A stretch of DNA of 64,000 nucleotides from Somniosus microcephalus (Eukaryota). Positions 16,201 to 51,225 of this stretch are shown in pieces. Positions within the stretch are counted from its first letter, which is position 1. The number at the start of each line of letters is the position of its first letter. The DNA lies in contig CM126206.1 of the NCBI GenBank assembly GCA_052327205.1, positions 37,448,001 through 37,512,000 of the forward strand. Direction: 5' to 3'. A program made the position numbers and the translations under genes. Below the pieces are notes generated by a model, which saw only the letters and a list, made by a program, of their open reading frames with translations, made no database searches and was not told where the DNA came from.

Positions 16201-17880
16201 TTGTTACTCATTTGGTTGGCCCAATCTATATGTAGATTAAAGTCACCCATGATGACTGCTGTGCCCTTATTGCACGCTTCTTTAATTTCTCTTTTAATGC
16301 AATCCCCAACCTCCGCCTTACTGTTTGGAGGTCTATAAACCACTCCCACTAACGTTTTTTTCCCCTTAGTATTTCTCAATTCTACCCATACAGATTCCAC
16401 CTCATCAGAGCTAATATCCTTCATTACAATTGTGTTAATCCCTTCTTTAATCCCTACCCCACCTCCCTTTCCTTTTTGCCTATCTTTCCTGAATATCGAA
16501 TACCCCTGAATGTTGAGTTCCCAGTCCTGGCCTTCCTTGAGCCACGTTTCCGTAATCCCAACCAAATCGTATTTGTTTACTTCTATTTGCGCAGCCAATT
16601 CATCCACCTCATTACAAATGCTCCTCGCATTAAGACACAAAGCCTTCAGGCTTGTTTTTTTAACACTCTTAGACCTATTAGAATTATTATTTACTGTGGC
16701 CATGTTTGATTTAAACCGTTGATTTCTCTGACTGCCACTTTTGTTTTTCTCCTTCCTATCTTTTGCTTTTATCCTTGTTTCCCTTTCCTCTGTCTCCCTG
16801 CTCAGGTTCCCAACCCCCTGCCATTTTAGTTTAAACCCTCCCCCACATCACTAGCAAACACTCCCCCTAGGACATTGGTTCCAGCCCTGCCCAGGTGCAA
16901 ACCGTCCGGTTTGAACTGGTCCCACCTCCCCCAGAACCGGTTCCAATGTCCCAGGAACTTGAATCCCTCCCCCTGGCACCATTCCTCTAGCCACGTATTC
17001 ATCTGAAGTATCCTTCTATTTCTACTCTGACTAGCACGTGGCACTGGTAGCAATCCTGAGATTACTACCTTTGAGGTCCTGTTTTTAGATTTATCTCCTA
17101 ACTCCCTATACTCTGCTTTTAGGACCTCATCCTGCTTTTTACCTATATCGTTGGTGCCTATATGCACCATGACAACTGGCTGTTCACCCTCCCCTTCCAA
17201 GATGTTCTGGAGTCGCTCGGAGACATCCTTGACCCTTGCACCAGGGAGGCAACACACCATCCTGGAGTCTCGTTTGCGGCCGCAGAAACGCCTATCTATT
17301 CCCCTTACAATTGAATCCCCTATTACTATAGCTCTACCCCTCTTTTTCCTCCCATTCTGTGCAGCAGAGCCACCCCTGGTGCCAGGAAGTTGGCTGCTGC
17401 TGCCTTCCTCTGATAAGCCATCCCCCCCAACAGTACTCAAAGTGGTGTATCTGTTGGAGAGGGGGATGGCCATAGGGGACCCCTGCACTACCTGCCTTCG
17501 CCTAGTACTCTGCCTGTTGGTCACCCGTTCCCTTTCTTCCTGTCCAACCTCTACCTGCGGTGTGTCCAACTCCGTAAATGTGCTATTCACGTTGTCAGCG
17601 TAATTTAACAGCGTAATTACTGCGGAAGAGCCAACATATTCGTCAGTTTCCATGCGTTGTGAGATTTCACTGATTGCTGGCTCCATGGTGGGGGCTGGGT
17701 GTGGGGGGGTGGTGGTGGGGGGGTGCATGGTGGCAGGGTGGGGGGGGTGTGGCGCAGATTGCGGTCTGTTTCGGAGATGTCAATGACAGGCCACAACTTT
17801 GGGATTTCAGCATGCGCCTGCGCCAAATCCCGAAGTTGCGGTCAGTTTCGAAGGCGGAATGTCAGTGAACGCTGCCAGTG
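13229..17880. repeat. Unclassified interspersed repeat split by the CR1 (segments ~13229-13751 and ~17600-17880)
   Basis: Starts ggcccggaattt, like the Harbinger-type termini elsewhere in the window. CpG-rich repeat-like sequence resumes on the other side of the CR1. No second TIR found. Confidence 0.3.
13752..17600 (-). mobile_element. CR1 (HER1-like) LINE, 5'-truncated: ORF1 SGNH esterase plus frameshifted ORF2 (APE endonuclease-RT)
   Basis: ORF1 has GDS, GTND and DGLHL motifs (stop at 16826). EN has NARS/TETW/GDFN/SDH (15969-16703). RT has GVPQGSVLGP/FADD (13854-15413). The 3' tail carries tandem tacatagaagatagg. Confidence 0.95.
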
Positions 17881-18989
17881 TATATTAAGAGAAACATATT
17901 ATGTTGTAGAATAAAAATGCAATAATAAAATAATCATTAACAAAACATTTATTTGTTTTTAACATGTTATTTACCATACAGCTATTTGAAGAGAGCTAAC
18001 CAAATACAGAAAGACGTTTCAATAATATTTTTGTGCTAATTGTGGCAATGGATGTAATGGAATGGTTTCCTTTTTTAGACACCCATTATCTGTTAATGGT
18101 TAGATGTAGACTAAAGCTCTGCTTTAATTTGCTTCAGCTACAACTTCAGAAGAGCAAATCCTACTGCATTAGTGTGCTATTTTTCCATTTTAAGAAACAT
18201 TGCATGGATTCTCTGAATTAGATTGTCAAATTAGCACCTAATTAGGGGTAGTTTTGGACTGTTGGGTTCATGATTACTGGGAACTGGACTGTCCAAACTT
18301 ATTTCAGGCAGGATCATTCATCCCATTGGTGTAGGTTGGATTTGATCCCAGGTCCCAAGCGTGAACACCTAAGCCGATGTGCCAATATATCCCCATCTAA
18401 TACAGAAGGGTTAAAAGCTCGTTCTAGGAGATAATATGGGGCAAATGCTCTTCATTCCTTTAAATGGACATTGTTCATTTGCATAATATGCAAAAAAGCA
18501 TCTGGTCTAACATTGCAATTAAGGAGAGGTATATAATACGGTAAGATTATTATTGCAGTTACACAATTGTAGGAATGTGCTAAAATGCCTTGGAGAACAG
18601 TAGTAACTTCATAACATATGACTGTGATTTATGCCCAAGGAATTTGTAAATCTAATGAAACTCGGTACCAATATCTTTTAAATCTAATTGAACTTGGTAT
18701 CAATGCCTGAATCAATACTGATGTGCTTGGCCACTGAGGAAGCATAAAAATAGCTGGCAAATTAAATTGTGGCCAAAGTACAGTGCTTCATCTTTATAGT
18801 CTTAAGTTAAAAAAAATCTATTGGGCATCTAACCCAATTCCTTTGAATTAAAGGGAAAGGTAATACCACGGTTAAGTAAAATAACGTCACTGATGTTAAT
18901 AAATACTCGCTCATGGCAAAATGAAAAACACAGCCGTCTTCCTATGATTGGTCTACAAAAGCCCCTATCTGTTGTAGTGACCTTATGCA

Positions 18990-19212: not shown

Positions 19213-19373
19213 ACTGACCCAGTGCTGTGGAGTGGATGCTGTGTCAGACTAGCATAGCTGTCCCTCATAAATTGAAGTAAAAGGAAAGGTTCTTTGCTAA
19301 ATGATTTTCAAAGTTATCTGTGTGAGGAATCCCTTGCAAACACTGACACTCCTCATCCTAAGTTCCAAAACAC

Positions 19374-29648: not shown

Positions 29649-30817
29649 TGTAGGATTCGCAAAATTGAACATTGTCCTATAAGGGTCTATTGGCAGAAAA
29701 GGCCTTAATTTTTAAAGACTGTTTTAAAAGAAGCCCAGAAAAAGGGGCACACAAAATGGCCGCCAGAACCCGTGACCAGCTTTTTGGGACATTTTAAAAT
29801 GGTTCCTGCAGTCCACAGACAGCTTTTGTGGATTCAGCCCACAGTAAGTTCTGGAATGCAATTTCGGAGAATGCGAAACCAGACAGAACCCCATACATAT
29901 GGATTGGATGCAGATCCAATCAGATCGGCCTGTAGATAAAGGCCATCAAAATGTTTACCCAGACAAAGGGAAACAGCCTCAAGTTCAAAGGGGGACATCA
30001 AGACCCATTAAAGACAATACAAGGTCATTCCAGACCAGAGATGGCAGTTACCGGCCATCCGGAAAGTACTTTAAACACAATGACTACCCCTCTGTGCTAC
30101 AAGCCCGCCAAAATTTAAACAAAGACTAACCTTCATATGGCAGGAGATAAGGGCCTCCATGAGAAGTATAACTGAAGACCTGGGGTAGCCATTAGGTGTT
30201 CAAGTTCAGAGAGAGAGCAGTGCGGAAGAGCAAGAACAGCATTGTAGAGATAATTTTGGAGAGATCGTTCGGGGGTCCGAAGAAGGTGCAGTTCGGTTAG
30301 GAGTTCGGGTTCGGTAGAGAGGCTGTTCAGACTCGGAAGAAGAAGACGATTCGGTAGATGTTTGGGATTGGAGACGTTTTGAAGACTCAAACTGGGACTG
30401 GTGAGCATGTTTCTGGCCCCTCATAATCTAATTTAGCTAGGTTTAGGGGGTGGGCATTTTAGGGGATAATTAACAATGAGTTGCTATCCCTCGATGTTCC
30501 GTGTGTTTCCCTATTTCATGGTGAACCTTGTAAAGTATAATATGCCTGTGGATATATTGGTTAGTACTGTATTATGATTTGTTTTTCCCTCCCATGTACC
30601 TTATTGGCTTACATTCAATTTTTCCTTTATGCAATAAAATTTCACTTCATTTCATTAAACTTGGTCTACAGAGTATTCTCTGCATTGTAGTTCCTGCCTC
30701 AAAGTCCAATGTACAGAACCTAAGGGGTGAGTGGGTCAAACCACTCGGTAAATTACTGTGCAAAAGAGAGAGAGGTCTCACCAGAGAGAGAGCCCTGGCA
30801 AAAAAAAAAACCTTACA
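29649..30817 (+). repeat. 5' LTR (1169 bp)
   Basis: TG...CA termini, direct repeat of 40691-41605 plus 46153-46403, AATAAA at ~30633, GGTGAGT donor-like site at 30726. Confidence 0.95.
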
Positions 30818-30821
30818 GAAA

Positions 30822-32648
30822 ATGGCGACCGCGGCAGGACACTGGCAGCAGGATTGCAATGTATTAGACCCAGGTTTAAATGGACGAAATGTTATGGATG
30901 AGAGGATAGCGGATTATGTTTTTGGTAAGGTAAATCTCACTAAACAGTGGATTTCCGATCTCTTACTGGATGGGCATCCGGTAGACGCAGCCGTCAGGTG
31001 GACAGAGAGTAAAGAACATAAAAAGTCAGTAGAGAAGGCAGTGTGGCTGATGTGCTACAAAAGACAAGTCCAGATTTTGGACAGAGTCGTTGCAGCGCAG
31101 GCAGCCAAGACCAAAACCCAGGCATCAGAAATAGAGGAAAAGGCCATGGGTGGAGAAAAGCTGATCGCAACGCTTCACGCGCTGAATCAGGAATGTCAAA
31201 CTGTAGCCAGTCAACATCAGGCTAAAGTAGAGTACCTGGAATGCCAGGTTACTGAGGCAAAGATTCATGAAGCGAGAGTACGGGAGAAAAGCGCCCGCCT
31301 CGCACAACAGCTAAGAGTGCAGGAGGAGAAAGTAGTGGAGGTTAAGGCAACTTACAAGCTGGCCACCGAGCAGGGATTTGAAAGCAGAGACCACGGCCCC
31401 TGCCAGAAGGCTGTAGAAGACCTAAGAATGGCCCTGGCTAAGGCAAAAGGCATGCTGTGCCTAGTAAGCCTGAAGGAATCCAAAAAACCGATTCCACGTG
31501 AAGTAGTTGTGGCACCAGCCACTGAACCCTCAGCACCGCCGAGCTGTAGTGAGGTTTGGCCCAAAGGGGGGGTGGTAGAACAGGAGGAAGAACAACCCCC
31601 GGTAGTGAAGCCGGAGCCGGCACCAATGTGTCCTGCTCGGCACCGGAGGTACGGTCCCGCCGCCGCAAATGGCGATGACGGACCCCTCCAGAACCATCTC
31701 ATACTGCCCCACAGTGCCCAACAAATCAGAGCGATGGTGAGCCACCTCCCAAAACTCTCCGAGAAGGGAGATCCCTCAGTCCATTTCAGGGAGATAGAGC
31801 AGACAGCCGCCATCAATGACTGCGATGGTCCAGGGCAGGCTAAGATGTTGCTATTCTCCCTGGATAGCACAATCCTTCAGTGCCTCTCAGACGGGAGTAA
31901 GAGGGGGCAGAAAGGGTATGAGGAACTCTGGGACGAGGCCCTGGAGGTTACGGGAGTGGACGACGGCAACCCGTTCCTCCGTGTGGAAGGGACTAAGCAG
32001 CTAACTGGAGAGCCCCCACGGGTTTTCGCAGAAAGGCTGTGGCCAGTGTATTGGCGCAGCTGTCCGGGCATGCCTGAACGGGCTGCAATGAACGATGTCC
32101 AGCGGGTTTATTGGCTCCGCTGCCTGGTTGCCAACAGCTTACCACAGGTACAGGCCCAAGCCAAATCTTGGTTTGACCCCCAAGGTCCCGGTACCACAGA
32201 GGAGACAGTGCTCCGACAGCTCACCATTGCATATAAGAATTGCAGGGGTCAGGAGGCACCTACCTCTAAGGGAAAAGTGCATGAGGCAAAACCCGCAGCC
32301 CCAAGTAAAAAGGAGTGGCATCAGGAAGGGAATTGCCCTCCCCAGGCCAAGCTCAATTGCTACGGGTGTGGGAAGGATAGACATTGGCGCAGGGACTGTA
32401 AAAATCCGTGAAAGGATAATAAGGGAAAATCTCCCGCAGCCCAAGCCCAAGCCCAGACCGCCGCCCCAGCACGAGTCCAGGTCCAAGCCGCAGCCCCTGT
32501 CCCAGGAAAAGGAGCCGGTGCAGCTATAGATCCCGCTGCGATAGAATCAATTTTAGAGATAATGCGGTCTCTTATGATCTCACAGGGGAAGATAGCAGTC
32601 ACCACCGGTCCCGTCGTTCCCGCGGCCCCGACCGCTCTACCCCAATGA
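30822..32648 (+). pseudogene. gag: Gag (coiled coil, capsid with MHR-like motif, CCHC knuckle) with one internal stop at 32409
   Basis: Heptad-rich region, KQLTGEPPRVFAERL, CYGCGKDRHWRRDC. The frame stays open after TGA 32409 through an Ala/Pro-rich tail to TGA 32646. Confidence 0.85.
30823..30840 (+). promoter_or_regulatory. Primer-binding site, tRNA-Arg(UCG)
   Basis: TGGCGACCGCGGCAGGAC is the reverse complement of ...GTCCTGCCGCGGTCG-CCA, the vertebrate tRNA-Arg(TCG) 3' end as I recall it. Located 5 nt after the LTR. Confidence 0.85.
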
Positions 32649-33361
32649 CTAGAGCCAGCGCAGCCCGTTTACCTGTGTTCGTTGCAATATGATTTATGGA
32701 GGCGACCCCTCGTGGAGATGGAGGTAGAGAAGGTAAAAGGGACCTATCTGTTGGATACGGGGGCATTGTGCACCGTGATCCACACGGCTAACCCTACCAC
32801 CTCACCTCTGTCCACATGGGTTCTATATATTCTGTCGGGCTCCACGGGCAAAGAACAGGCTGGCGCATTCTCCATCCCCCTCTCCATTCATTTAGGACCA
32901 CTCTGCACCACGTGAAAGTGTGTACTGATGAAGTGGGAGGTGGAGGGTGGAAAAGGGATCTTGGGTCCGATTTCTTAGTAGAACACGGGATCCTTGTGGA
33001 TCTTAGAAATCGCTGTCTCTGGGGAACGAGTACGGGTAAGAAAGGCAGAAAGGGTTCCAAGGTAAACCCAAAGAAGGCACGGATCGGCCAGCAGGAAGTA
33101 AAATTCCTGGGTCTGACCATCCGCGCTGGAGAGAGAGCCATAGACAAGGCTAGACGGGAACCGGTGCAAGACCCACCAGTCCCCACCACCTACGCAGTGA
33201 AGTTGCCCCGGCGCACTAAATGGTTTCACGTAAACCAGTGCAAACTATTTAAGCTGGGAGCAAAAGAGCCAACAACCGAAGCCAGGTCTGAGGGTAAAAA
33301 TCCTCAGCCTGAGGCGTGCAAAAGTCACAGACCACACAGGCTGGCGCCGCAGCCTGCTTGA
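32649..33361 (+). pseudogene. pol: Protease plus internally deleted pol (RT primer-grip/thumb fragment fused to the integrase C-terminal domain)
   Basis: YLLDTGA and ILGSDFL (with a stop and a 1-nt frameshift), then KVNPKKARIGQQEVKFLG, then TYAVKLPRRTKWFHVNQCK. No YxDD, RNase H or DDE core. Confidence 0.85.
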
Positions 33362-36542: not shown

Positions 36543-36784
36543 ATTTTGCTGCTATGTATAGAGTTAGAGTTTCCCTCCCTCCTCTATTTTTGATAGTATT
36601 CATTTGTGATTTTGTGTGTATTTTTCTTCCTTTATTATTTTTATTGAAGTTTACTATGTGTGTCGTTATTAATAAAAGATAATATGTATGAACCAGGTGG
36701 TGTAGGGGTATTAGGCCCCCCTCCATGCCTGGAAATCTGTGTGTCAGATTTTAACTCCAATGTATTGCCATCTATAGATGCTTA

Positions 36785-39700
36785 ATGTACACTGTTCACG
36801 AGTTGTTCACGCCTCAGGGTAGGGCTGCACAGGGGGTGACCATCAGGCGGAGCAACAGAGGCAGGCAGGAAGTGCAGGGAACCCCTGCGGACATCCCCCT
36901 TTCAAACAGGTATACCAAGTTGGATACTGTTGAGGGGGATGACTCACCAGGGGAAGGCAGCAGCAGCCAGCTTCCTGGCACCAGGGATGCTTCTGCTGCT
37001 CAGGAAGGGAGGAAAAAGAGTGGGAGAGCAATAGTGGTAGGGGATTCTATCGTAAGGGGAACAGATAGGTGTTTCTGTGGCTGCAAACGTGACTCCAGGA
37101 TGGTTTGTTGCCTCCCTGGGGCCAGGGTCATGGATGTCACTGAGCAGCTACAGGGCATTCTTAAGGGGGAGGGTGAGCAGGCAGAGGTCGTGGTCCACAT
37201 TGGGACCAACGACATAGGTAGGAAGGGGGATGAGGTCCTGCATCAAGAATTTAGGGAGCTAGGTAACAGATTAAAGGGCAGGACCTCAAAGGTTGTAATC
37301 TCTGGATTACTCCCAGTGCCACGTGCTAGTGAGTATAGGAATAGGAGGATAGTGCAGAAGAATGCGTGGCTAAAGAGTTGGTGTAGGAGGGAGGGTTTTA
37401 GTTTCCTGGATCACTGGGCCTGCTTCTGGGAAAGGTGGGACTTGTACAAGTCGGACGGGTTGCACCTGAACCAGAGCGGGACAAATATCCTTGCGGGGAG
37501 GTTTGCTAGCACTGTTGGGGGGGGGTTTAAACTAACTTGGCAGGGGGATGGGATACAGAGGGGAGCTGAAATAGGGGGTGATGTGCTGCCAATTATAGAG
37601 AAAAAAACAAGTCAGCTTGGTAGACAGGGCAAATATATAAGGGCAAGGCTGGATGGCATCTATTTTAATGCAAGGAGTCTTGCAAATAAGGTGGATGAAC
37701 TGAAGGTGTTGATAAACACATGGGAGTATGATATTGTTGCTATCACGGAGACATGGTTGAGGGAGGGGCAAGACTGGCAGCTCAATATTCCGGGGTACAG
37801 AATCTTCAGGCGAGACAGAGGGGGAGGTAAAAGAGGAGGGGGTGTCGCAATATTAATTAAGGAGTCAATTACTGCAGTAAGGAGGGATGATATATTAGCA
37901 GGTTCCTCTAATGAGGCCATATGGGTGGAGCTTAAAAACAAAAAGGGGGCAAGCACTTTGCTGGGAGTGTACTATAGGCCTCCAAACAGTCAGGGGGAGA
38001 TAGAGGAACAGATATGTAGGCAAATCTCAGAGAAACGTGCAAATAATAGGGTAATAATAATGGGGGATTTCAACTTCCCCAATATTAACTGGGATAGTCA
38101 AAGTGTGAAAGGCTCAGAGGGTGTAGAATTCTTAAAGTGCATCCAGGAGAGCTTTTTGAGCCAGCGTGTAGAAAGTCCTACAAGAGAGGGGGCAGTACTG
38201 GACCTAATTCTAGGGAATGTGGCCGGCCAAGTGGAAAAAGTGCTAGTAGGTGAGCACTTTGGTGACAGTGACCATAATATGGTGAGATTTAAGGTGGTCA
38301 TGGAAAAGGACAGGGATGGGCCGGAAATAAAGGTTCTAAATTGGGGGAAGGCCAATTTTAATAGGATAAGGCAGGATCTGGCCAAAATGGACTGGGATCA
38401 GCTACTTGTAGGAAAATCCGCATCGGAGCAATGGGAGACTTTCAGAAGGGAGATTGAGATCATACAATGGCAACATGTTCCCGTAAAGGTCAAGGGTGGT
38501 TCCAAAAACCACAGGGAACCTTGGATGTCAGGGGATATACGAGAATGGATTAGGAAAAAAAGGAGGGCTTTTGGCAGATACAAAAGGCTAAAGACGGAGG
38601 AAGCCCTAGAGGAGTACAAAAAGTGCAGGGGGATAATTAAAAAAGAAATTAGGAGATCAAGGAGGGGCCATGAAATAACATTGGCGAGCAAAATAAAGGA
38701 AAATCCTAAGATGTTTTATAAGTATATTAAGGGTAAGAGGATAACTAGGGAAAAAATAGGGCCCATTAGGGACAAAAGTGGCAATCTGTGTGTGGAGCCG
38801 GAAGATGTAGGAGGGGTTCTAAATGAATTTTTTGCATCTGTTTTCACTATGGAGGAGGACGATGTAGACATAGAAATAGAGTGGGGGGACTGTGATATGC
38901 TCGAACATATTAACATCGAGAGGGAGGAGGTATTGGCGGTTTTAGCAGGCCTAAAAATGGATAAATCCCCAGGCCCGGATGAAATGTATCCCAGGCTGCT
39001 GTGTGAGGCAAAGGAAGAGATTGCGGGGGCTCTAACACATATATTCAGGACCTCTCTGGCCACAGGGGATGTGCCAGAGGACTGGAGAACTGCTAATGTA
39101 GTAACATTATTCAAGAAGGGAAGTAGGGAAAAACCGGGGAACTACAGGCCAGTGAGCCTAACATCAGTGGTAGGACAATTATTGGAAAAAATTCTGAGGG
39201 ACAAAATTAGTCTCCACTTGGAGAGACAAGGATTAATCAGGGATAGTCAGCATGGCTTTGTCAAGGGAAGATCATGTCTGACTAATTTGATTGAATTTTT
39301 TGAGGGGGTGACCAGGTGTGCGGATGAGGGTAACGCAGTGGATGTGGTATACATGGATTTCAGTAAGGCCTTCGATAAAGTCCCGCACAGGAGACTGGTC
39401 AAGAAGGTAAGAGCCCATGGAATCCAGGGTGCCTTGGCACATTGGATACAAAACTGGCTTAGTGGCAGAAGGCAGAGGGTGATGGTCGAAGGTTGTTTTT
39501 GTGACTGGAAGCCTGTGGCCAGTGGGGTGCCACAGGGATCGGTGCTGGGTCCCTTGCTGTTTGTGGTCTACATTAATGACTTGGATATGAATGTAAAAGG
39601 TATGATCAGTAAGTTCGCGGATGATACAAAAATTGGTAGGGTGGTAAATAGCGAGGAGGGTAGCCTCAGTCCACAGGACGATATAGATGGGTTGGTCAGA

Positions 39701-40453
39701 TGGGTGGAACAGTGGCAAATGGAATTTAACCCGGAAAAGTGCGAGGTGATGCACTTTGGGGGGACTAACAAGGCAAGGGAATACACAATGAATGGTAAGA
39801 CCCTAGGCAAGACGGAGGTGCAGAGGGATCTGGGTGTGCAAGTACACAGATCCCTGAAGGCGGCGGAACAGGTGGATAAGGTGGTAAAAAAGGCATATGG
39901 GATACTTGCCTTCATTAGCCGAGGCATAGAATATAAGAGCAAGGAGGTTATGATGGAGCTGTATAAAACACTGGTTAGGCCACAGCTGGAATACTGTGTG
40001 CAGTTCTGGTCGCCACACTACAGGAAGGATGTGATCGCTTTGGAGAGGGTGCAGAGGAGATTCACCAGGATGTTACCAGGGCTGGAGCGCTTCAGCTATG
40101 AAGAAAGGCTGGGCAGATTGGGTTTGTTTTCCTTGGAGCAGAGGAGGCAGGGGGGGGACATGATTGAAGTGTACAAAATTATGAGGGGCATAGATAGGAT
40201 GGATACTGAGGAGCTTTTTCCCTTAGTAGAAGGGTCAATAACTAGGGGGCATAGATTCAAGGTAAAGGGCGGGAGGTTTAGAGGGGATTTGAGAAAGAAC
40301 CTTTTCACCCAGAGGGTGGTTGGAGTCTGGAACTCACTGCCTGAAAGGGTTGTGGAGGCAGGAACCCTCACAACTTTGAAGAAGCATTTGGATGAGCACT
40401 TGAAATGCCATAACATACAAGGCTACGGACCAAATGCTGGAATATGGGATTAG
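36785..40453 (+). CDS. Fused CR1 ORF1 esterase-ORF2 endonuclease/RT, 1222 aa uninterrupted
   Basis: GDS/GTND/DGLHL, NARS/TETW/GDFN/SDHN and PQGSVLGP/FADD in one frame. The fusion results from a 9-G run at 37517-37525. Confidence 0.85.
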   Translation: MYTVHELFTPQGRAAQGVTIRRSNRGRQEVQGTPADIPLSNRYTKLDTVEGDDSPGEGSSSQLPGTRDASAAQEGRKKSGRAIVVGDSIVRGTDRCFCGCKRDSRMVCCLPGARVMDVTEQLQGILKGEGEQAEVVVHIGTNDIGRKGDEVLHQEFRELGNRLKGRTSKVVISGLLPVPRASEYRNRRIVQKNAWLKSWCRREGFSFLDHWACFWERWDLYKSDGLHLNQSGTNILAGRFASTVGGGFKLTWQGDGIQRGAEIGGDVLPIIEKKTSQLGRQGKYIRARLDGIYFNARSLANKVDELKVLINTWEYDIVAITETWLREGQDWQLNIPGYRIFRRDRGGGKRGGGVAILIKESITAVRRDDILAGSSNEAIWVELKNKKGASTLLGVYYRPPNSQGEIEEQICRQISEKRANNRVIIMGDFNFPNINWDSQSVKGSEGVEFLKCIQESFLSQRVESPTREGAVLDLILGNVAGQVEKVLVGEHFGDSDHNMVRFKVVMEKDRDGPEIKVLNWGKANFNRIRQDLAKMDWDQLLVGKSASEQWETFRREIEIIQWQHVPVKVKGGSKNHREPWMSGDIREWIRKKRRAFGRYKRLKTEEALEEYKKCRGIIKKEIRRSRRGHEITLASKIKENPKMFYKYIKGKRITREKIGPIRDKSGNLCVEPEDVGGVLNEFFASVFTMEEDDVDIEIEWGDCDMLEHINIEREEVLAVLAGLKMDKSPGPDEMYPRLLCEAKEEIAGALTHIFRTSLATGDVPEDWRTANVVTLFKKGSREKPGNYRPVSLTSVVGQLLEKILRDKISLHLERQGLIRDSQHGFVKGRSCLTNLIEFFEGVTRCADEGNAVDVVYMDFSKAFDKVPHRRLVKKVRAHGIQGALAHWIQNWLSGRRQRVMVEGCFCDWKPVASGVPQGSVLGPLLFVVYINDLDMNVKGMISKFADDTKIGRVVNSEEGSLSPQDDIDGLVRWVEQWQMEFNPEKCEVMHFGGTNKAREYTMNGKTLGKTEVQRDLGVQVHRSLKAAEQVDKVVKKAYGILAFISRGIEYKSKEVMMELYKTLVRPQLEYCVQFWSPHYRKDVIALERVQRRFTRMLPGLERFSYEERLGRLGLFSLEQRRQGGDMIEVYKIMRGIDRMDTEELFPLVEGSITRGHRFKVKGGRFRGDLRKNLFTQRVVGVWNSLPERVVEAGTLTTLKKHLDEHLKCHNIQGYGPNAGIWD

Positions 40454-40542
40454 ATTAGACAGGGCTTGATGGCCGGCACGGACACGATGGGCCGAAGGGC
40501 CTCTATCTGTGCTGTTTAACTCTATGACTCTATGACTCTATG
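36796..40542 (+). mobile_element. CR1 LINE (5'-truncated) inserted between env and the 3' LTR
   Basis: Esterase-EN-RT coding sequence, (GACTCTAT)n tail at 40520-40545, possible TSD actgt. Confidence 0.95.
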
Positions 40543-40681
40543 ACTGTGGGTTTTTTGAAATGGGAAATGCATGTGTCATAGGGTCATAGATAGGTAAATA
40601 CAGGGGATGATTTGATTATGGAGAGTCAGAAAATTTTGCTCACCCAGAATTATGATACTTCAAGCAAGTTATAGTATCATC

Positions 40682-40690
40682 AGGGGGGAC
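40682..40690 (+). promoter_or_regulatory. Polypurine tract of the provirus
   Basis: aggggggac immediately before the TG of the 3' LTR. Confidence 0.7.
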
Positions 40691-41929
40691 TGTAGGATTC
40701 GCAAAATTGAACATTGTCCTATCAGGGTCTATTGACAGAAAAGGCCTTAATTTGTAAAGACTGTTTTAAAAGAAGCCCAGAAAAAGGGGCACACAAAATG
40801 GTCGCCAGAACCCGTGACCAGCTTTTTGGGACATTTTAAAATGGTTCCTGCAGTCCACAGACAGCTTTTGTGGATTCAGCCCACAGTAAGTTCTGGAATG
40901 CAATTTTGGAGAATGCGAAACCAGACAGAACCTCATACATATGAATTGGATGCAGATCCAATCAGATCGGCCTGTAGATAAAGGCCATCAAAATGTTTAC
41001 CCAGACAAAGGGAAACAGCCTCAAGTTCAAAGGGGGACATCAAGACCCATTAAAGACAATACAAGGTCATTCCAGACCAGAGATGGCAGTTACCGGCCAT
41101 CCCGAAAGTACTTTAAACACAATGACCAATCCTATGTGCTACAAGCCCGCCAAAATTTAAACAAAGACTAACCTTGATATGGCGGGAGATAAGGGCCTCC
41201 ATGAGAAGTATAACTGGAGACCTGGGGTAGCCATTAGATGTTCAAGTTCGGCGAGAGAGCAGTGCGGAAGAGCAAGAAGAGCATTGTAGAGATCATTTTG
41301 GAGAGATCGTTCGGGGGTCCGAAGAAGGTGCAGTTTGGTTAGGAGTTCGGGTTCGGTAGAGAGGCCGTTCAGACTCGGAAGAAGAAGACGATTTGGTAGA
41401 CGTTTGGGATCGGAGACGTTTTGAAGACTCAAACTGGGACTGGTGAACATGTTTCTGGCCCCTCATAATCTAATTTAGCTAGGTTTAGGGGTGGGCATTT
41501 TAGGGGATAATTAACAATGAGTTGTTGCCCCTCGATGTTCCATGTGTTTACCTATTTCATGGCGAACCTTGTAAAGTATAATATGCCTGTGGATACATTG
41601 GTTAGTGTTATGTTCATTAATAACTAGTCGTTTTTATTAAGAACAGCTAGCTTTTGCTAGACACTTTATTGAGCACATGTGGACTAGATACAGTATCTGT
41701 AGAGGCCTCCATCTTGACTGCTGCCTTGTCGGTAGCCTAGTGCATCGTGGGTAGCCCACTCTTATATACATACAGCACCACCTAGTGTACCATTCCAGAA
41801 TGACAGGTTACTGATCATTACATCCCCCTTTCTTTGAGGTTAAACAAAATCAGTATCAATCAATATCAATCAATAACAACATAAACATCTTCAACAGTCA
41901 ATACATTTTCAATGTAGTTTTCTTTGTAC

Positions 41930-44900
41930 TCAAAGATTAAGTCTATCAGGCTTTTTTACTTCACGTGTGGATCCTCTCAGCACAGGTAAGTCTGATGTGT
42001 TTTCTTGAGAGCCTGTATGTGTATTTGTGTTAGATTGTTCTGGTGGTGAGTGACAAGATTCAGTTGCGGCATTGTCATCGATTTGCTCTTCGATAGTCTC
42101 TTGTGTTTTTAGGAGGGAACGGCGGTTTCTCCTGAGAATCTGTCCTTCCTCAGTTCTAACAGTGTATGACCTTGGTCCTACTTCCTCAAGAACTGTAGCT
42201 TTCCTGTTCCATGCATCTGGATCCTCAATCCTGACAACATCATCCCTCGTCAATGGTTTCAGAGTTTTGGATGACTTGTCATAGTATGATTTCTGTTTCA
42301 GCTTTAACAGTTGAAGTCTCTGTCTCAGTTCCTTACTCTGCTTTTCTTTTGCACAGCAGGGTAGCGTGGTACAGAACTTGCGACCCATTAGGAGTTCAGC
42401 AGGTGAAGAACCACAGTCTAAAGGTGAGGCTCGGTAGCTCAGCAGGGCGAGATAAGGATCAGACTTGCTTTCTGTCGCTTTCTGCAGTAGCTGCTTGAGA
42501 ACTTGAACACCTTTCTCTGCCTTACCATTCGACTGAGCATACAAAGGACTGGATGTGATATGTTGAAAGTCATAATGTGCTGCAAACTGTTGCCACTCCT
42601 TACAGTTGAAGCACGGACCATTGTCACTAACGGCAATCCTGGGAATTCCATGTCTGACGAAGATGGATTTCACATGCATTATGACACTGCTTGCTGTGGT
42701 GCTTGAGAGCAGCGCCATCTCAGGATAGTTAGAATAGTAGTCAATCACTATTAGATAGTCTTTACCATTTAAATGAAAAAGGTCCATACCAACCTTTTGC
42801 CATGGTGCTGTTGGTATGTCAGCTACTATCATTGGTTCCTTTCCTTGTTTGTTTTGGTGTTTCTGACATGTCTCACATTTGCCTATCATGTTCTCAATGT
42901 CCTTATTTATGCCAGGCCAATAAACAGTGTCTCTTGCTCTCCTTTTGCATTTTTCAATTCCGAGGTGTCCCTCATGAATCCTTTTGAGCATGTCTTGACG
43001 TAGAGCCTGTGGAATGACTATTCTGTTCTGTTTCAGTAATAGTCCACTTGCGACACTCAATTCTGACCTTATGTCAAAATATTTTGGACAGGAACCTTTT
43101 GGCCAACCATGATGAATGTTCTCTATTACTGTTTGTAATACTGTATCTTTTACTGTTTCTTCTGCTATTTGCATTGATTTTGTGTCTGACACGGGCAGCG
43201 CAGCAGTGACCATACTCACATGAACATCCACGTCTTCTTCAGTAGAGCTCACATGACTCATTGTGGGTGCTCGGGATAGTGCATCTGCTAACACTATGTA
43301 TTTGCCTGGTGTGTAGATCAGTTCAAAGTCATATCTTTGCAGCTTCATCATGAGTCGTTGAATCCTTGGAGACATCTCATTCAGGTTCTTTTTTATGATG
43401 GCAACCAATGGGCTGTGGTCTGTCTCAACTGTGAAGGTGGGAAGTCCATATATGTAGCCATGAAACTTTTCTAGTCCAACTACCAAGCCTAGACATTCCT
43501 TTTCAATCTGGGCGTATCGACACTCAGTATCAGTCATAGACCTGGAGGCATAGGCAACAGGCTTCCAATCTTCACCCTCTGCTTGTAGCAAGACCGCACC
43601 CAGGCGATCTTTTGATGCATCCGTTGACACTTTGATTCTTTTTGTTGGGTCAAAGAAGGTGAGTACAGGTTTGGTTGTCAGCACTGTTTTGAGGTTTATC
43701 CACTCTTGTTCATGTCTTTCTGTCCATGCGAACTCATTTGTTTTATGTAGCAGGTCTCGCAGACAGGCTGTCTTGGCTGACAAGTTAGGAATGAACTTTC
43801 CAATGAAGTTTATCATCCCCATGATGCGTAGCACTCCTTTTTTGTCAGTGGGTCGGGGCATTTTGAGTATGGCATTTACTTTTTCCATATCTGGCTCTAT
43901 TCCTTTACCAGATAGATTATCTCCTAGGAAAGTGACTTCCTGGATGCCAAACTGACACTTGGCTTTGTTGAGCTTCAGTCCATTCCGGCATATGCTGTGT
44001 AGCACTTTAGTCAGTCTCTCATTGTGTTCTTTCAGTGTGGAGCCCCAGATGATGATGTCATCAACATAGACCTGAACTCCTTCCAGACCTTCAATTATGT
44101 GTTCCATCACTCTATGAAAGATTTCAGATGCAGATATTATCCCGAAAGGCATTCTGAAGAAACAATACCTGCCAAATGGTGTGTTGAAGGTACAGTATTT
44201 GGTGCTCTCTTCAGCCAGTTTTAGTTGCCAAAATCCTTGTGAGGCATCGAGCTTTGTGAAGTATCTGGCACCTGACATTTCACTGGTGATTTCTTCTCGC
44301 TTGGGAATCTGGTAGTGTTCACGTTTTATGTTTGCATTTAAGTCCTTTGGATCCATGCATATTCTTAGATCATTGTTCTTTTTCTTTACATATACCATGG
44401 AGTTAACCCAGTCTGTTGGCTCTTCGACTTTCCTGATGACTCCTAGAGTGGTCATTCTGTCCAGTTCATTCTTGAGTTGTTTACACAGGGGTGCTGGAAC
44501 TCTTCGTGGAGCATGTACCACTGGCTGAGCATCCTCCTTTAGCTGGATCTTGTTAGTGAATGGTAGAACTCCAAATCCTTTGAACACATCCTGGAAATTA
44601 TTCACTACAGAATCCACCGAGTCATCTGGTCTGCTTATGGCACAGTTTATACGGTAGACTCTCTTGACCAGTTCTAAGTCCTCACAAGCTTTGTCACCCA
44701 GTAGTGAATCAAGTCCTTCAGCCACAACAGAAAACATGAGATGATGCACTTTGTCTTTGACTGTCACTTTAAGTCTGCATACACCTAAGCTATCTATTTT
44801 CTGTCCATTATAGTCCTTCAGTAGTACTGACTTTTTCTGTATTTTGGACTTTTCTTTCATATTTTTAATGTCACTCATACTGATTAAATTTGCTTTTGCC

Positions 44901-45229
44901 CCAGTGTCTAGTTTCAATGTAACTAATGCTCCATTTACCTGCAGTGGGATCATCCATTTGTCCTCTTTTACTGCATTGACTTTATGTTCAGCATTGTTAA
45001 TTCCTGAGGGCTGCACATTTTCTGTATCCTTTTTGATATTGTCACATGACACCATTCCTACAAAACATGTCTCACTTAAATCAGTGTCCTCAATTACATT
45101 AACTCGTTGCCCTTTCGTAGTTTTTCTTTTGAAAAGCATTGTTTGGCAAAGTGATTCTTTCCATGACATTTTGTGCACATTTTTCCAAACGCTGGACATT
45201 GTTTCAACTGGTGTTTGTAGCCACAGCAT
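41930..45229 (-). CDS. pol: Gypsy pol: PR-RT-RNaseH-IN, 1099 aa open
   Basis: LDTGA, YVDD, TDAS..EKE..TDH, HEGH..CETC, DLF..SDNG..AEKGV. Confidence 0.95.
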   Translation of the reverse strand: MLWLQTPVETMSSVWKNVHKMSWKESLCQTMLFKRKTTKGQRVNVIEDTDLSETCFVGMVSCDNIKKDTENVQPSGINNAEHKVNAVKEDKWMIPLQVNGALVTLKLDTGAKANLISMSDIKNMKEKSKIQKKSVLLKDYNGQKIDSLGVCRLKVTVKDKVHHLMFSVVAEGLDSLLGDKACEDLELVKRVYRINCAISRPDDSVDSVVNNFQDVFKGFGVLPFTNKIQLKEDAQPVVHAPRRVPAPLCKQLKNELDRMTTLGVIRKVEEPTDWVNSMVYVKKKNNDLRICMDPKDLNANIKREHYQIPKREEITSEMSGARYFTKLDASQGFWQLKLAEESTKYCTFNTPFGRYCFFRMPFGIISASEIFHRVMEHIIEGLEGVQVYVDDIIIWGSTLKEHNERLTKVLHSICRNGLKLNKAKCQFGIQEVTFLGDNLSGKGIEPDMEKVNAILKMPRPTDKKGVLRIMGMINFIGKFIPNLSAKTACLRDLLHKTNEFAWTERHEQEWINLKTVLTTKPVLTFFDPTKRIKVSTDASKDRLGAVLLQAEGEDWKPVAYASRSMTDTECRYAQIEKECLGLVVGLEKFHGYIYGLPTFTVETDHSPLVAIIKKNLNEMSPRIQRLMMKLQRYDFELIYTPGKYIVLADALSRAPTMSHVSSTEEDVDVHVSMVTAALPVSDTKSMQIAEETVKDTVLQTVIENIHHGWPKGSCPKYFDIRSELSVASGLLLKQNRIVIPQALRQDMLKRIHEGHLGIEKCKRRARDTVYWPGINKDIENMIGKCETCQKHQNKQGKEPMIVADIPTAPWQKVGMDLFHLNGKDYLIVIDYYSNYPEMALLSSTTASSVIMHVKSIFVRHGIPRIAVSDNGPCFNCKEWQQFAAHYDFQHITSSPLYAQSNGKAEKGVQVLKQLLQKATESKSDPYLALLSYRASPLDCGSSPAELLMGRKFCTTLPCCAKEKQSKELRQRLQLLKLKQKSYYDKSSKTLKPLTRDDVVRIEDPDAWNRKATVLEEVGPRSYTVRTEEGQILRRNRRSLLKTQETIEEQIDDNAATESCHSPPEQSNTNTHTGSQENTSDLPVLRGSTREVKKPDRLNL

Positions 45230-45897
45230 TTACAATTAAAAATTCCTTCCTCCGATTGCTTTTCACTTCTGTTCTGCCCATGTTTCTTCCCCTTGTAGGA
45301 CACAGCACCGACAGCAGCACTTACTGCAATTGCATCATCATTGATTTCACTGAAAGTCTTGGCATCCTTTTGAGCTAGCTCGCTAGCTTGGCATATTTTC
45401 ACATCAATTTCCAATGTTAGTTCAGTTTCTCTCAACAGACGTTCCCTGGCTTTTTTATCATGAATACCAAACACAATCTGGGCACGAATTATGGATGCTT
45501 TCAGCTCAGAGAAATTACATATCTGTGCTTTCAGTTTCAGATCCGTCAAAAAGCTATCAAAAGTCTCATTTTGCTGCTGTGTCTGAGAGCGGAAGATGTA
45601 CCTCTCATAGGTTTCATTCTTTTTGGGAGAACAATGTGTATCAAACTTCTTTAGCACATCGTCTAATTTTTCTCTGTTCTCCTCTGGATTAAATACAAAT
45701 GTATTAAATACATCTATCGCCTGTGGGCCTGCAACCATGAGCAGCAACACTATTTTCCTTGCATCTGGCTTCATACCGTACCCGATGGCAGCAATGTAGA
45801 GTTTGAATTGTTGTTTAAAAGTCTGCCAATTGTAGCCGACATTTCCTGTGAGTTTCAAATGCTCTGGTGGCTTCAAATTCTCCATGTCACGTTGCAC
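45094..45897 (-). CDS. gag: Gypsy gag with double Cys/His knuckle; pol lies in the -1 frame
   Basis: MENLKPPEHL..NWQTFKQQF, QQQNETFDSF, CKCCGYKH...CPAFGKMCTKCHGKNHFAKQC. Confidence 0.9.
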   Translation of the reverse strand: MQRDMENLKPPEHLKLTGNVGYNWQTFKQQFKLYIAAIGYGMKPDARKIVLLLMVAGPQAIDVFNTFVFNPEENREKLDDVLKKFDTHCSPKKNETYERYIFRSQTQQQNETFDSFLTDLKLKAQICNFSELKASIIRAQIVFGIHDKKARERLLRETELTLEIDVKICQASELAQKDAKTFSEINDDAIAVSAAVGAVSYKGKKHGQNRSEKQSEEGIFNCKCCGYKHQLKQCPAFGKMCTKCHGKNHFAKQCFSKEKLRKGNELM

Positions 45898-47280
45898 AAT
45901 ATTCAGCAGATCTTACCAATCCTGGTACCATGTTATGTTCATTAATAACTAGTCATTTTTATTAAGAACAGCTAGCTTTTGCTAGACACTTTATTGAGCA
46001 CATGTGGACTAGGTACAGTATCTGTAGAGGCCTCCATCTTGACTGATGCCTTGTGGGTAGCCTAGTGCCTCGTGGGTAGCCCACTCTTATATACATACAG
46101 CACCACCTAGTGTACCATTCCAGAAAGACAGGTTACTGATCATTACTGTTAGTACTGTATTATGATTTGTTTTTCCCTCCCATGTACCGTATTGGCTTAC
46201 ATTAGTTTTTCCTTTATGCAATAAAATTTCACTTCGTTTCATTAAACTTGGTCTACAGAGTATTCTCTGCATTGTAGTTCCTGCCTCAAAGTCCAGTGTA
46301 CAGAACCTAAGTGGTGAGTGGGTCGAACCACTCGGTAAATTACTGTGCAAAAGAGAGAGAGGTCTCACCAGAGAGAGAGACCTGGCAAAAAAAAACCCTT
46401 ACACAGTGCATCCTGTGGGCAGTACATACTGCAGCGACGGTGCGCCGGTGATGGAGGGAGTGGACATTTAAGGTTTCAGAGAGGAACGTGAGTCAGTGCT
46501 TTCAGGACAAGAAGAGAAAAAAATTGGAGGGGGAAAGGAAAAGAACATTTAAAAGATGAGTATATATCCTGTGGTATTTCTCAGTGTGTATGGGGTGTGA
46601 CTTGGAGGGGAAGTTGGAGGTGATGGTGTTCTCATCTGTCTGCCTTTTGAGCAGTATCTGTCAGACCTTAAGTATCAAACATGCAAAATATCAACTTGAG
46701 AGGTATTGCTACGGTGGGGTGTGTGGGGGTGGATTGTGATGCACATTACTTGGAAATGAGTTTGTGAGAGTTGTGTTCAAGCAATAGAGAAATTTTGAAT
46801 AGCTTTTCGAAAATTTGAGTCACAGTATTTTTTTTGTGAGCAGTCTTTGCATGTGTGACAAGCACATGCTGAACATATGACTTTCACATATATAACTCTC
46901 CCATAGGGTTGCTTGTGGATTAAACAATGAGTACATGAGTAAGTCTTCCTCACCCAATGCAGGTAGATAAATGAAGAATTAAATCGATTCCACTCACATA
47001 GCACAGTCACATCATCAATAAATAAATCTGTGCATGTTAGTTTCCATTCCATCAATAAACAGCTCTTCTCCCCTGGCCGAACACATCTCTCACAAACTCA
47101 TTGAATGTTGCATCATTTTTACTGTCAAAGTTACCTCAGATAAAGTTTTGATGCTCTCATGTAAAGCAATTGATAGCTACTGTCACAGTTCCAATAATGG
47201 CTTTGTGGCTTTCAGTTCGGTCTGTTCTCAATGCTACTCTATCACTAGATAAGAAAGGGGGCAAGACTTACAAACAGCAA

Positions 47281-50200
47281 GAAACATAGAAACATGGAAA
47301 ATTAGGAGCAGGAGTAGGCCATTCGGCCCTTCGAGCCTGCTCCGCCATTCAATATGATCATGGCTGATCCTCTGTCTCAATATCATATTCCCGCTCCCTC
47401 CCCATACCCCTTGATGCCTTTTGTGTCTAGAAATCTATCTATCTCCTTCTTAAATATATTCAGTGTCTTGGCCTCCATAGCCTTCTGTGGTAGAGAATTC
47501 CACAGGTTCACCACCCTCTGAGTGAAGAAATTTCTCCTCATCTCAGTCCTAAATGTCCTACCCCGTATCCTGAGACAGTGACCCCTCGTTCTAGACCCCC
47601 CAGCCAGGGGAAACATCCTCCCTGCATCCAGTCTGTCTAGCCCTGTCAGAATTTTATACGTTTCAATGAGATCCCCTCTCATTCTTCTAAACTCTAGTGA
47701 ATACAGGCCTAGTCAACCCAACCTACATAAGAACATAAGAACATAAGAAATAGGAGCAGGAGTAGGCCAATCGGCCCCTCGAGCCTGCTCTGCCATTCAA
47801 TCAGATCATGGCTGATCTGATCCTAACCGCCAATCCACTATCCCAGAACCATCTCCTGAATCTAACAGAATTAGACACACGAAATGGGAGCAGGATCAGG
47901 CTACACGGCCCCTGGGCCCACTCTGCTACCCACAGGGCCATGACCGATCCGAACCTAGACTCATGTCCAAATTCCTGCCCGCTCCCCGTAACCTTTAATT
48001 CCCTTTACTTCTAGGAAACTGTCTATTTCTGTTTTAAAGTTATGTAATGATGTAGCTTCTACAGCTTTTTGGGGCAGCATATTCCATGGACCTACCACCC
48101 TCTGAGTGAAGTAGTTCCTCCTCATCTCAGTTTTGAAAGAGCAGCCCCTTATTCTAAGACTATGCCCCCTAGTTCTAGTTTCACCCATCATCGGGAACAT
48201 CTTCCCCGCTTCCACCCGATCCAACCCCTTCACAATCTTATATGTTTCAATAAGATCGTCTCTCATTCTTCTGAACTCCAATGAGTAGAGTCCCAATCTA
48301 CTCAACCTCTCCTCATATGTCCATCCCCTCATCCCCGGGATTAACCGAGTGAACCTTCTTTGTACTGACTCGAGAGCAAGTATGTCCTTTCTTAAGTATG
48401 GACACCAAAACTGTACGCAGTATTCCAGGTGCGGTCTCACCAATACCTTGTACAACTGAAGCAATACCTCCCTATTTTTATATTCTATCCCCCTAGCAAT
48501 GAAAGCCAACATTCCATTGGCCTTCTTAATCACTTGCTGCACCTGCATACTAACCTTTTGAGTTTCGTGCACCAGGACCCCCAGATCCCTTTGTACTTCA
48601 GTACTTTCCAGTTTCTTGCCATTAAGATAATAACTTGCTCTACGATTTTTCCTGCCAAAGTGCATAACCTCACACTTTCCAGTATTGTATTCCATCTGCC
48701 AAATCTCTGCCCACTTACTTAGCCTGTCTATGTCCCCTTGCAGGTTTTTTATGTCCTCCTCACTCACTACTTTCCCTCCCATCTTAGTATCATCTGCAAA
48801 CTTTGATATGTTACACTCGGTCCCCTCCTCCAAATCGTTAATATAGATTGTAAAGAGTTGGGGACCCAGCACTGACCCCTGCGGAACACCACTAGTTACT
48901 GATTGCCAGTCTGAGAATGAACCATTTATCCCAACTCTCTGCCTTCTGTTAGATAGCCAATCCTCTATCCATGCCAGAATATTACCCCCAATCCTGTGAT
49001 TTTTTATCTTAAGCAATAATCTTTTGTGTGGCACCTTGTCAAATGCCTTTTGGAAGTCTAAATACACTACGTCCACTGGTTCCCTTTTATCCACCCTATA
49101 TGTTACTTCCTCAAAGAACTCCAGCAAATTTGTCAAACATGACTTCCCCTTCATAAAACCATGCTGACTTTGTCCTATTAAATTATGATTATCCAAATGT
49201 CCTGTTACTGTCTCCTTAATAATGGACTCCAAAATTTTATCTACCACAGATGTTAGGCTAACCGGTCTATAGTTTCCAGCCTTCTGTCTACTGCCCTTTT
49301 TAAATAAGAGTGTTACATTTGCAGTTTTCCAGTCGGCCGGGACCTTTGCCGAGTCCAGGGAGTTTTGGAAAATTATTACCAATGCATCCACAATCCCTAC
49401 CGCCACTTCCCTCAAGACCCTAGGATGTAAGCCATCAGGTCCAGGTGATTTATCCGCCTTGAGTCCCATTATTTTACCGAGTACCACTTCCTTAGTGATT
49501 TTGATCATGTTTAGCTCCTCCCCCCTTTAGCCCCCTGTTTGTCCAGTGTTGGGATATTCTTAGTGTCTTCTACTGTAAAGACTGATGTAAAATATTAATT
49601 CAGTGTTTTGCCATCTCCATATTTCCCACCATTAATTTCCCGGTCTCATCCTCTAAGGGACCAACATTTACTTTAGCCACCCTTTTTCTTTTTATATAAC
49701 TATAAAAACTCTTACTATCTGTTTTTATATTTTTTGCTAATTTACTTTCATAATCTATCTTCCCTTTCTTAATCAATCTTTTTGTTATTTTTTGCTGTCT
49801 ATTAAAGTTTTCCCAATCCTCTATCCTCCCACTAGATTTGGCTACCCTATATGCCCTTGTTTTTAGTCGAATACTATCCTTAATTTCTTTACTTAGCCAC
49901 GGATGGCTGTCTTTTCTTTTACACCCTTTTCTTCTCAGTGGAATATATTTTTTTTGGAAGTTGTAAAATAACTCCTTAAATGTACACCACTGATCATGTA
50001 TCGTCTTACCCTTTAATCTATTTTCCCAATCCACTCTACTCAATTCCGCTCTCATACCTTCATAGTCTCCTTTATTCAAGCTTAGCACGCTTGTTTGAGA
50101 TCCAACCTTCTCACCCTCTAATTGAATATGGAATTCAACCATGTTATGGTCACTCATTCCAAGGGGATCCTTTACTAGGACATTTTTAATTAATCCTGTC

Positions 50201-51225
50201 TCGTTACACAGGACCAGATCTAAGGTTGCTTGCCCCCTGGTCGGTTCAGTTACATACTGCTCAAGAAACCCATCCCTAATACACTCAATGAACTCATCCT
50301 CAAGGCAGCCCTGCCCAATTTGATTTGTCCAATTAATATGATAGTTAAAATCCCCCATAATTATAGATGTTCCCTTATTACAAGCCTCAACTATTTCCTG
50401 ATTGATACTCTGTCCAACAGATTTGCCACTGTTCGGAGGCCTATAGACTATGCCCACTAGTGTTTTTTTCCCCTTATTATTCCTTACCTCCACCCAAACT
50501 GTTTCATTATCCAGATCTTTTGACCCAATATCATTTCTCTGTATTACAGTGATTCCTTCCTTTATTAACATAGCCACCCCACCTCCCCTTCCTTCCTGCC
50601 TGTCCTTCCTGATCGTTAAATAACCTGGTATGTTTAATTCCCAGGCATTGTCACCCTGCAGCCATGTTTCTGTAATGGCCACAAGATCATACCCATATGT
50701 AGTTATTTGTGCCATTAACTCGTCTATTTTGTTACGAATGCTACGTGCATTCAGATAGAGAACTTTCAAAGATGTTTTGTGACACTTAGTTCCTGCTTTT
50801 GCCCTTTTTATTACTTTACCTTTTACTCCATACCTTCTGCCCCTTCCTGACACGCTCTGGTTTTTAATTTCCCCACTGCTACCTAAGTCTATGACCTTCT
50901 CTGTTGTCATTTTTATTATTTGCTCTCTAGGAACCTCCCCCCCACTAGTTAGTTTAAAGCCCTCTCTACAGCCCTAGTTATATGATCCGCCAGGACTCTA
51001 GTCCCAGCACTGGCCAAGTGAAGCCCGTCCCGACGGAACAGCTCCCTCCTGCCCCAGTACTGGTGCCAGTGTCTCTCCTCATACGACAGTCCTGCCATCC
51101 CAGGAATCAGTCTGGTGAACCTTTGCTGCACTCCCTCTAAGGCAAGTATATCCTTTCTTAGGTAAGGAGACCAAAACTGCTCACAGTACTCCAGGTGTGG
51201 TCTCACCAAGGCCCTGTATAAATGT
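47281..51225 (-). mobile_element. Outer CR1 3' fragment (47281-47724 and 51073-51225) interrupted by another CR1
   Basis: cccaacct|ctcctcatacgac rejoins the RT C-terminus (GLSYEER|LG..). Tail gaaacatagaaacat. Confidence 0.85.
47725..51072 (-). mobile_element. Inner CR1: end of ORF1 plus nearly intact ORF2 (one frameshift near 49600)
   Basis: DGLHL...ERALN*, EN 49600-50910, RT 47961-49508, (acataaga)n tail. Confidence 0.95.

Follow-up and report, generated by a model that had tools for sequence, protein, structure and literature searches.

CR1 elements are the dominant long interspersed nuclear elements (LINEs) of birds and make up 11.8% of the chicken model chromosomes (PMC11835228). In a survey of canonical vertebrate CR1 (PMC13343379), the first open reading frame (ORF1) encodes an esterase, ORF2 encodes an APE endonuclease (EN) and a reverse transcriptase (RT), and there is no poly(A); the same survey describes chondrichthyan L2 elements without ORF1 and limits poly(A) to Zenon. 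Here we consider three CR1-type LINEs in a 64,000-nucleotide stretch of the Somniosus microcephalus genome (GenBank assembly GCA_052327205.1, contig CM126206.1, positions 37,448,001 to 37,512,000 of the forward strand), together with their relatives. This whole 64-kb stretch is called the window below and supplies all position numbers, and element counts described as genomic refer to the same 6.45-Gb genome. We propose, with a probability that we put at roughly 0.7, that ORF2 of vertebrate CR1 is translated by programmed -1 ribosomal frameshifting at a U-UUA-AAC-stop sequence that ends ORF1, which would yield an esterase-EN-RT fusion.

In the literature that we searched, we found no account of how CR1 makes ORF2. 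The main text of the canonical survey contains no occurrence of frameshift, slippery or overlap, and its supplements could bear on the junction (PMC13343379). Full-text searches returned no proposal of CR1 frameshifting; their coverage did not extend to the 1997 turtle and chicken CR1 papers, which may discuss the overlap. CR1 is likewise not mentioned in the first 300,000 characters of a recoding review (PMC5009743), and in the excerpts of a report on invertebrate CR1 on which we draw, 2A recoding is described and frameshifting is not (PMC3708506).

The Dictyostelium elements TRE5-A and TRE3-A, which are APE-type retrotransposons without long terminal repeats (non-LTR), also have two ORFs, and a review figure legend states that their ORF2 needs a -1 frameshift (PMC5911963). 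Among non-LTR elements in general, -1 frameshifting thus has a precedent; the TRE host is an amoebozoan, and ORF1 is unrelated. Viral U_UUA_AAC sites of the coronavirus infectious bronchitis virus (IBV) type, and the retroviral gag-pol layout, offer the same heptamer, the same phase and a polymerase in the -1 frame, and this heptamer is among the most shift-prone on mammalian ribosomes (PMC5009743). Mammalian L1 resembles CR1 in that a bicistronic LINE mRNA yields ORF2 without the need for an AUG (PMC11485995), but in L1 a spacer lies between the two ORFs and reinitiation is the presumed route to ORF2, whereas the CR1 ORFs overlap at an invariant heptamer. Judged by this layout, the CR1 site would be a variant of a known recoding mechanism.

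A slippery heptamer at the end of ORF1

The three window elements (copy A on the minus strand, copy B on the plus strand and copy C on the minus strand) combine an esterase ORF1 with EN and RT, and all are 5'-truncated. Direct reading of the window places TTTAAACTAA at 16826-16835 (-), 37526-37535 (+) and 50949-50958 (-), which are the junction sites of copies A, B and C where a preliminary description of this DNA had reported the motif. The window contains four matches where 0.18 would be expected, and the remaining one, at 7997, lies in unrelated sequence. The -1 frame, previously described as open into the EN ORF in copies A and C, contains no stop codon from the heptamer to the endonuclease in any of the three copies. 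The heptamer had also been described as correctly phased, which holds for copies A and C and fails for copy B. In the latter, nine G residues instead of eight precede the heptamer and the esterase continues in frame into ORF2, and the heptamer is therefore out of slippery phase with its own ORF1.

The window elements have the features of canonical vertebrate CR1, specifically an APE endonuclease and an RT in ORF2, an esterase ORF1, and a tandem-repeat 3' end without poly(A), short tandem repeats at the 3' end being a characteristic of CR1. Pfam identifies Exo_endo_phos and RVT_1 in copy B and the EN domain in copies A and C. The ORF1 proteins have homologues in birds, rays, chimaeras and frogs, and are closest to those of sharks and rays (78% identity to a sawshark protein).

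Conservation of the heptamer at the nucleotide level

A search pattern for the esterase that excludes the heptamer matched 50,868 genomic sites (control 30), which illustrates the abundance of CR1 in this genome, and a variant pattern matched 4,644. We examined 100 of these loci, namely 30 of the first pattern, 40 more of the same pattern picked for diversity from the other 70 listed, and 30 of the variant. The heptamer and stop are present in 82 (76 in phase and six out of phase through private indels), and the remaining 18 comprise 11 substitutions, three deletions, three truncations and one lost stop. The heptamer is the majority state in every multi-copy family sampled. An independent sample anchored on EN (n = 30) yielded the motif in 20 loci, a damaged version at the same place in six and truncation in four, and no alternative junction type among these 30; a protein-anchored sample of the same size agrees with it.

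One exact junction form has 34,707 genomic copies, and its single-base variants at two positions have 179 and 682. The heptamer's third A is thus mutated about four times as often as its second A (682 versus 179 copies). Subfamilies founded on a broken heptamer are not supported, as these variants are scattered on a 35-row tree of the copy A family; only the TTAACC variant clusters there, in part via a duplicated locus.

For comparison between lineages we aligned 22 representatives, each one real copy, with 19 from the genome and three from metagenome contigs that carry a bird-type ORF1. Their median identity over the last 26 ORF1 codons is 59%, and all 22 read nnG-nnT-TTA-AAC-TAR (TAA in 13, TAG in nine). 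Leucine is always TTA (18% of leucine codons in the background) and asparagine always AAC (39% of asparagine codons). The codon before the leucine specifies Gly, Ala, Asp, His, Ser or Cys, yet its third base is T in every representative. Control columns from the same elements do not behave in this way: a single codon is used in none of 65 near-invariant degenerate columns, and the third base is fixed in none of 283 variable columns. The alignment proposed in the preliminary description, which was to ask whether TTTAAAC is conserved beyond what Leu-Asn requires, thus returns a nucleotide-level constraint, and the synonymous variation between lineages that could have spoken against a slip site is absent (22/22 TTTAAAC). 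In addition, the third base of codon -4 is G in all 22 representatives despite the use of five amino acids.

In 19 of the 22, the -1 frame is closed by a stop codon one to five codons upstream of the heptamer, and entry into this frame is therefore confined to the last ~22 nt of ORF1 or later. Within that region U-UUA-AAC is the only in-phase heptamer common to all representatives, and in nine of them another in-phase heptamer precedes it by one codon. The junction is a real signal of the recoding type, and its conservation is deep.

ORF1 protein ends in the wider family

The Leu-Asn ending extends well beyond this genome. Among anchored matches from fish, sharks and frogs it is found in 44 of 51 (of 93), and among those of bird type in 74 of 87 (of 120 listed), in the latter even where the catalytic His of the esterase has been lost. 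Because bird esterases often lack this residue, catalysis is unlikely to be what maintains the ending. When 1.8 billion representative proteins were searched with a profile, there were, among the best 150 matches listed, 87 new proteins that reach the ORF1 end. Leu-Asn terminates 25 of the 29 strongest of these, and the 58 weaker matches end in LN (21), GN (eight) or others (KN, SN, EN, FR or DF). The GN and KN ends, seen at the protein level, offer a lead in that they would be compatible with G-GGA-AAC and A-AAA-AAC heptamers. Distant esterase ORF1s (P0268-P0344) end QGN, SKN, FLN, KDF or FFR, which could likewise be encoded by slippery heptamers of other kinds.

A search for longer fused proteins gave four matches, none of them informative, and scans of viral and prokaryotic contigs revealed no CR1. 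Two ORF1 proteins, one of shark type and one of amniote type (P0006 and P0198), are filed under bacterial species names in public databases and probably reflect host contamination.

Reading frame and linker

ORF2 lies in the -1 frame across lineages. The distances from the heptamer to the EN catalytic Asn in modal copies are 117, 141, 156, 159, 162, 171, 177, 186, 204, 207, 213 and 264 nt, each divisible by three. Most modal copies are free of stops in the -1 frame, versus 2-13 in the other frames, and no family's modal copies revealed the -1 frame stops that had been proposed as a refutation. Shuffled linkers remain open in 0.5-26% of trials per lineage, intact copies having been chosen. The linker proteins are mostly less than 40% identical pairwise, and in one pair of subfamilies the linker has 17 non-synonymous and no synonymous changes while EN has 10 and 13; only openness and frame therefore appear to be selected. 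The linker looks like a basic, low-complexity tether that would be translated but otherwise unconstrained.

An open linker is also to be expected if ribosomes terminate at the ORF1 stop and restart near it in the -1 frame, with or without an AUG. Under this main rival, the conserved cassette would be a restart signal and the ORF2 protein would be separate. We consider termination-reinitiation unlikely.

Start codons and a recombinant lineage

Only three of the 22 representatives have an AUG in frame at 30 nt or less from the stop. The conserved start codon at or next to the stop that would mark termination-reinitiation of the L1, SART1 or calicivirus type is therefore absent, which is an argument against AUG-dependent restarting but still allows restarting of the AUG-independent L1 type. 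The codons that directly follow the stop are not conserved as start-like (TGG, AGT, AAG, AGA, TTT and TCG). No conserved motif of the UGGGA type, through which caliciviruses reinitiate, is seen upstream in the alignment of 22 representatives. Furthermore, reinitiation gives no account of why the invariant bases match X-XXY-YYZ exactly and in phase. In its favour, L134, L136 and L137 each have an ATG at 2-5 nt from the stop, no frameshift-stimulating structure has been found (see below), and ORF2 of L1 is translated independently of AUG, perhaps by reinitiation (PMC11485995, PMC5009743).

At least four amplified lineages have no AUG ahead of the endonuclease. Three of these, in which none precedes the EN catalytic Asn, are the copy B family, the L078 family, whose first Met is codon 255, and the L051 family. 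Copy B itself was described as lacking Met before the middle of EN, and its first Met is indeed codon 178 (IIMGDFN), with the catalytic Asn at codon 47. The further point that AUG reinitiation could therefore not yield a full EN loses weight as an argument, because L1 ORF2 is translated without dependence on AUG (PMC11485995) and a missing AUG alone does not bar reinitiation.

The fourth AUG-poor case is a recombinant lineage (loci L341-L370 and L372-L401) in which the junction cassette forms the seam between a copy B-family ORF1 and a linker and ORF2 from the copy A family. Its ORF1 end is 94-97% like copy B and its linker and EN are 93-98% like copy A, where copies A and B themselves are 74-80% identical upstream of the junction and 55-60% downstream. 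There are at least 1,617 exact junction copies. The Met codon of the linker is GTG in 24 of 27 scored copies (of 30), and the first Met is usually codon 139, beyond the EN Asn at codon 68. Thus, the AUG has been lost in a lineage that amplifies; GTG is a near-cognate codon, and mobilisation in trans is possible.

That this lineage crosses over at the cassette, and that extra invariant G positions flank the heptamer, could be taken to mean that selection maintains the cassette for a role outside translation (for instance in template switching, in the packaging of RNA or as a protein-binding site), with ORF2 expressed in some other way. However, a crossover is expected wherever the sole shared homology lies, and this view would account neither for the strictly kept -1 frame and its stop-free linker nor for lineages that have no AUG. 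A non-translational role for the cassette seems to us very improbable.

The extra G of copy B

The in-frame fusion in copy B raises the prospect that ORF2 is brought in frame at the transcript level, by polymerase slippage in the upstream G-run or by splicing. The G-run of the copy B family is unstable, with 512 genomic copies that carry 9-12 G versus 3,047 that fit a span of eight or less, and copy B is an example of such a fusion. In contrast, the upstream G-run is absent in many lineages. Nine-G copies are scattered over the tree without forming a clade (13 changes for 17 rows), and in copy B's own subfamily nine G are found in three of 30 copies and the eight-base span in 18 of 30. Contigs from four probable RNA runs, which derive from other organisms, contain no extra G and no recurring joint; seven joints were seen, each in one contig, and none is GT..AG. 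We regard fusion at the transcript level as highly improbable. The tree scatter and the subfamily count also rule out copy B as founder of an amplifying in-frame lineage. Its nine-G run is a private homopolymer slip, and copy B is a damaged copy that mimics the frameshift product.

The search for a stimulator

Short hairpins had been suggested downstream of the heptamers, but these do not survive comparison with shuffled sequence: 80-nt folds, made without explicit pseudoknot modelling in a region of only 5-20% C, give z = -0.26 for copy B, -1.47 for copy A and +0.52 for copy C. The test detects a real element, since the control, a viral contig that shares the heptamer and the stop codon, gives z = -4.8. 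That contig (L307, positions 26-2511) is an RNA virus whose ORF1 ends U-UUA-AAC-UAA, with a strong hairpin 8 nt downstream and an RNA-dependent RNA polymerase in the -1 frame; unlike the control, the CR1 sites have no such hairpin, and none shows a canonical stem-loop or pseudoknot 5-9 nt downstream. According to the predicted folds, no local stem or pseudoknot acts as the stimulator. Two specific pairings were rejected. One, between the downstream G-tract and the IPLSN region about 630 nt upstream, is not conserved. The other, a stem across the slip site that pairs upstream FAS/ITR codons with downstream WQG codons, is disrupted in several lineages and scores no better than shuffles.

The G-tract itself is nearly invariant, as position +11 is G in all 22 representatives and positions +12 to +15 are G in 19-21 of 22. 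A two-tier G-quadruplex with a spacer of 6 is the predicted fold in seven of 23 sequences (those of WQG type), not in the bird-type or most of the copy C-type sequences. In arterivirus nsp2, a short homopolymer-rich motif lies about 10 nt downstream of the shift site, a placement comparable to that of the CR1 tract. The arterivirus shift is stimulated by proteins, namely nsp1-beta and poly(C)-binding protein (PMC5009743), although the viral motif is rich in C and shifting there is predominantly -2, whereas CR1 has a G-rich tract without a known binding protein. G-quadruplexes stimulate -1 shifting on U3A3C, with an optimal spacer of 6-8 nt and 0.4% shifting without them, but the structures in question were three-tier (PMC3919603).

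A proposed frameshifting model for CR1

Under programmed -1 frameshifting, most ribosomes would stop at the end of ORF1 and release its protein, and a small share would slip back by one base on tRNA-Leu and tRNA-Asn and read on through the linker. The product would be an ORF1p-linker-EN-RT fusion comparable to Gag-Pol. We infer the slip, the fusion protein and the low efficiency from the layout of the junction; a low shift rate may suffice for a LINE. Candidate stimulators are the adjacent UAA or UAG, the G-tract 10 nt downstream (through a bound protein or a weak two-tier G-quadruplex) and, in some lineages, a tandem G-GGU-UUA site. The minimal junction cassette is shorter than 60 nt.

What the sequences establish is the layout of the junction, the constraint on its nucleotides, the conserved frame and the lack of an AUG in several lineages. 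Several considerations weigh against frameshifting. The 22 representatives were hand-picked among copies that bear the heptamer, are not independent and are up to 94% alike in some cases, and no P value can be attached to them. One control codon is fixed as well, with His as CAC in 20 of the 20 rows that carry it, and neither the G at codon -4 (22/22) nor the G-tract is accounted for by a plain heptamer. The ATG found 2-5 nt from the stop in two of the three bird-type contigs and in one shark copy suits reinitiation. Moreover, the 80-nt local folds downstream of CR1 junctions are no better than shuffles (z near 0), no long-range pairing partner is common across lineages, and consensus stems are no stronger than those of column-shuffled alignments, as the observed value is reached by 21 and 11 of 60 shuffles.

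If frameshifting does operate, the active enzyme would be an ORF1p fusion with a fixed ratio of ORF1 to ORF2, annotation based on AUG would shorten CR1 ORF2, and engineered CR1 tools and retrotransposition assays would need to include the junction. Gag-Pol logic would then reach vertebrate LINEs, and CR1 would provide a natural frameshift site that lacks the usual RNA structure. A bolder version, which we hold as doubtful but conceivable, is that the adjacent stop, together with a protein on the G-tract 10 nt downstream, drives a structure-free -1 shift as a cellular parallel to the protein-stimulated shifts of viruses, that the arrangement is older than vertebrates (the QGN, SKN, FLN and KDF ends would fit other heptamers, for example G-GGA-AAC and A-AAA-AAC) and that the cassette serves as a plug for swaps of ORF1 and ORF2 modules.

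Layout of the three copies and neighbouring features

Copy A (-) retains a truncated ORF1 ending GLN-stop at 16826-17600, with an approximate 5' boundary, and its SGNH esterase spans about 16880-17326 (Lipase_GDSL_2, 1e-12; PDB 4C1B, 1e-33). The heptamer T-TTA-AAC (16835-16829) and its TAA occupy 16826-16835, with a second in-phase heptamer, G-GGT-TTA, just before. The conserved G5-NN-GGG tract (16809-16818) begins 10 nt past the heptamer. The stop-free -1 frame linker to the EN Asn is 204 nt long (16631-16835) and contains a sole ATG at 16703, and ORF2 with EN and RT (13854-16631) is broken by indels into three pieces.

Copy B (+) is a single 5'-truncated frame of 1232 amino acids (36755-40453) that runs from esterase through linker to EN and RT, fused through one extra G in the run of nine at 37517-37525, where eight is the family norm. 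The heptamer and TAA follow at 37526-37535, and a G5-AT-GGG tract lies 10 nt past the heptamer at 37543-37552. Its 141-nt linker (37526-37667) has no ATG, the first Met being at about 38060 within the EN domain, and its 3' end carries three 8-bp tandem repeats without poly(A) (40519-40542). Copy C (-) preserves the last ~35 ORF1 codons, ending ALN-stop (50949-51060; heptamer 50958-50952, TAA 50951-50949), a G7 tract 3' of the stop (50937-50943), a stop-free -1 frame linker of 207 nt (50751-50958) with an ATG at 50910, and an indel-broken ORF2 with EN and RT in two pieces (47961-50751).

Copy B is nested inside an LTR element at 29649-46395, the LTR pieces of which are 94-98% identical. The gag-like (30534-32411) and env-like (34665-35819) ORFs of this LTR element both lack a Pfam match. 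A Gypsy element at 41606-46146 (-), with 216-bp repeats that are 97% identical, splits the 3' LTR of the element that contains copy B. The first exon of a hedgehog gene lies at 4507-4935 (-; Pfam HH_signal), and the LINEs sit in its upstream region. By its N-terminus we take this exon to be Sonic-like. Finally, a tandem array of about 112 copies of a 31-bp unit at 55028-58473 yields long spurious ORFs.

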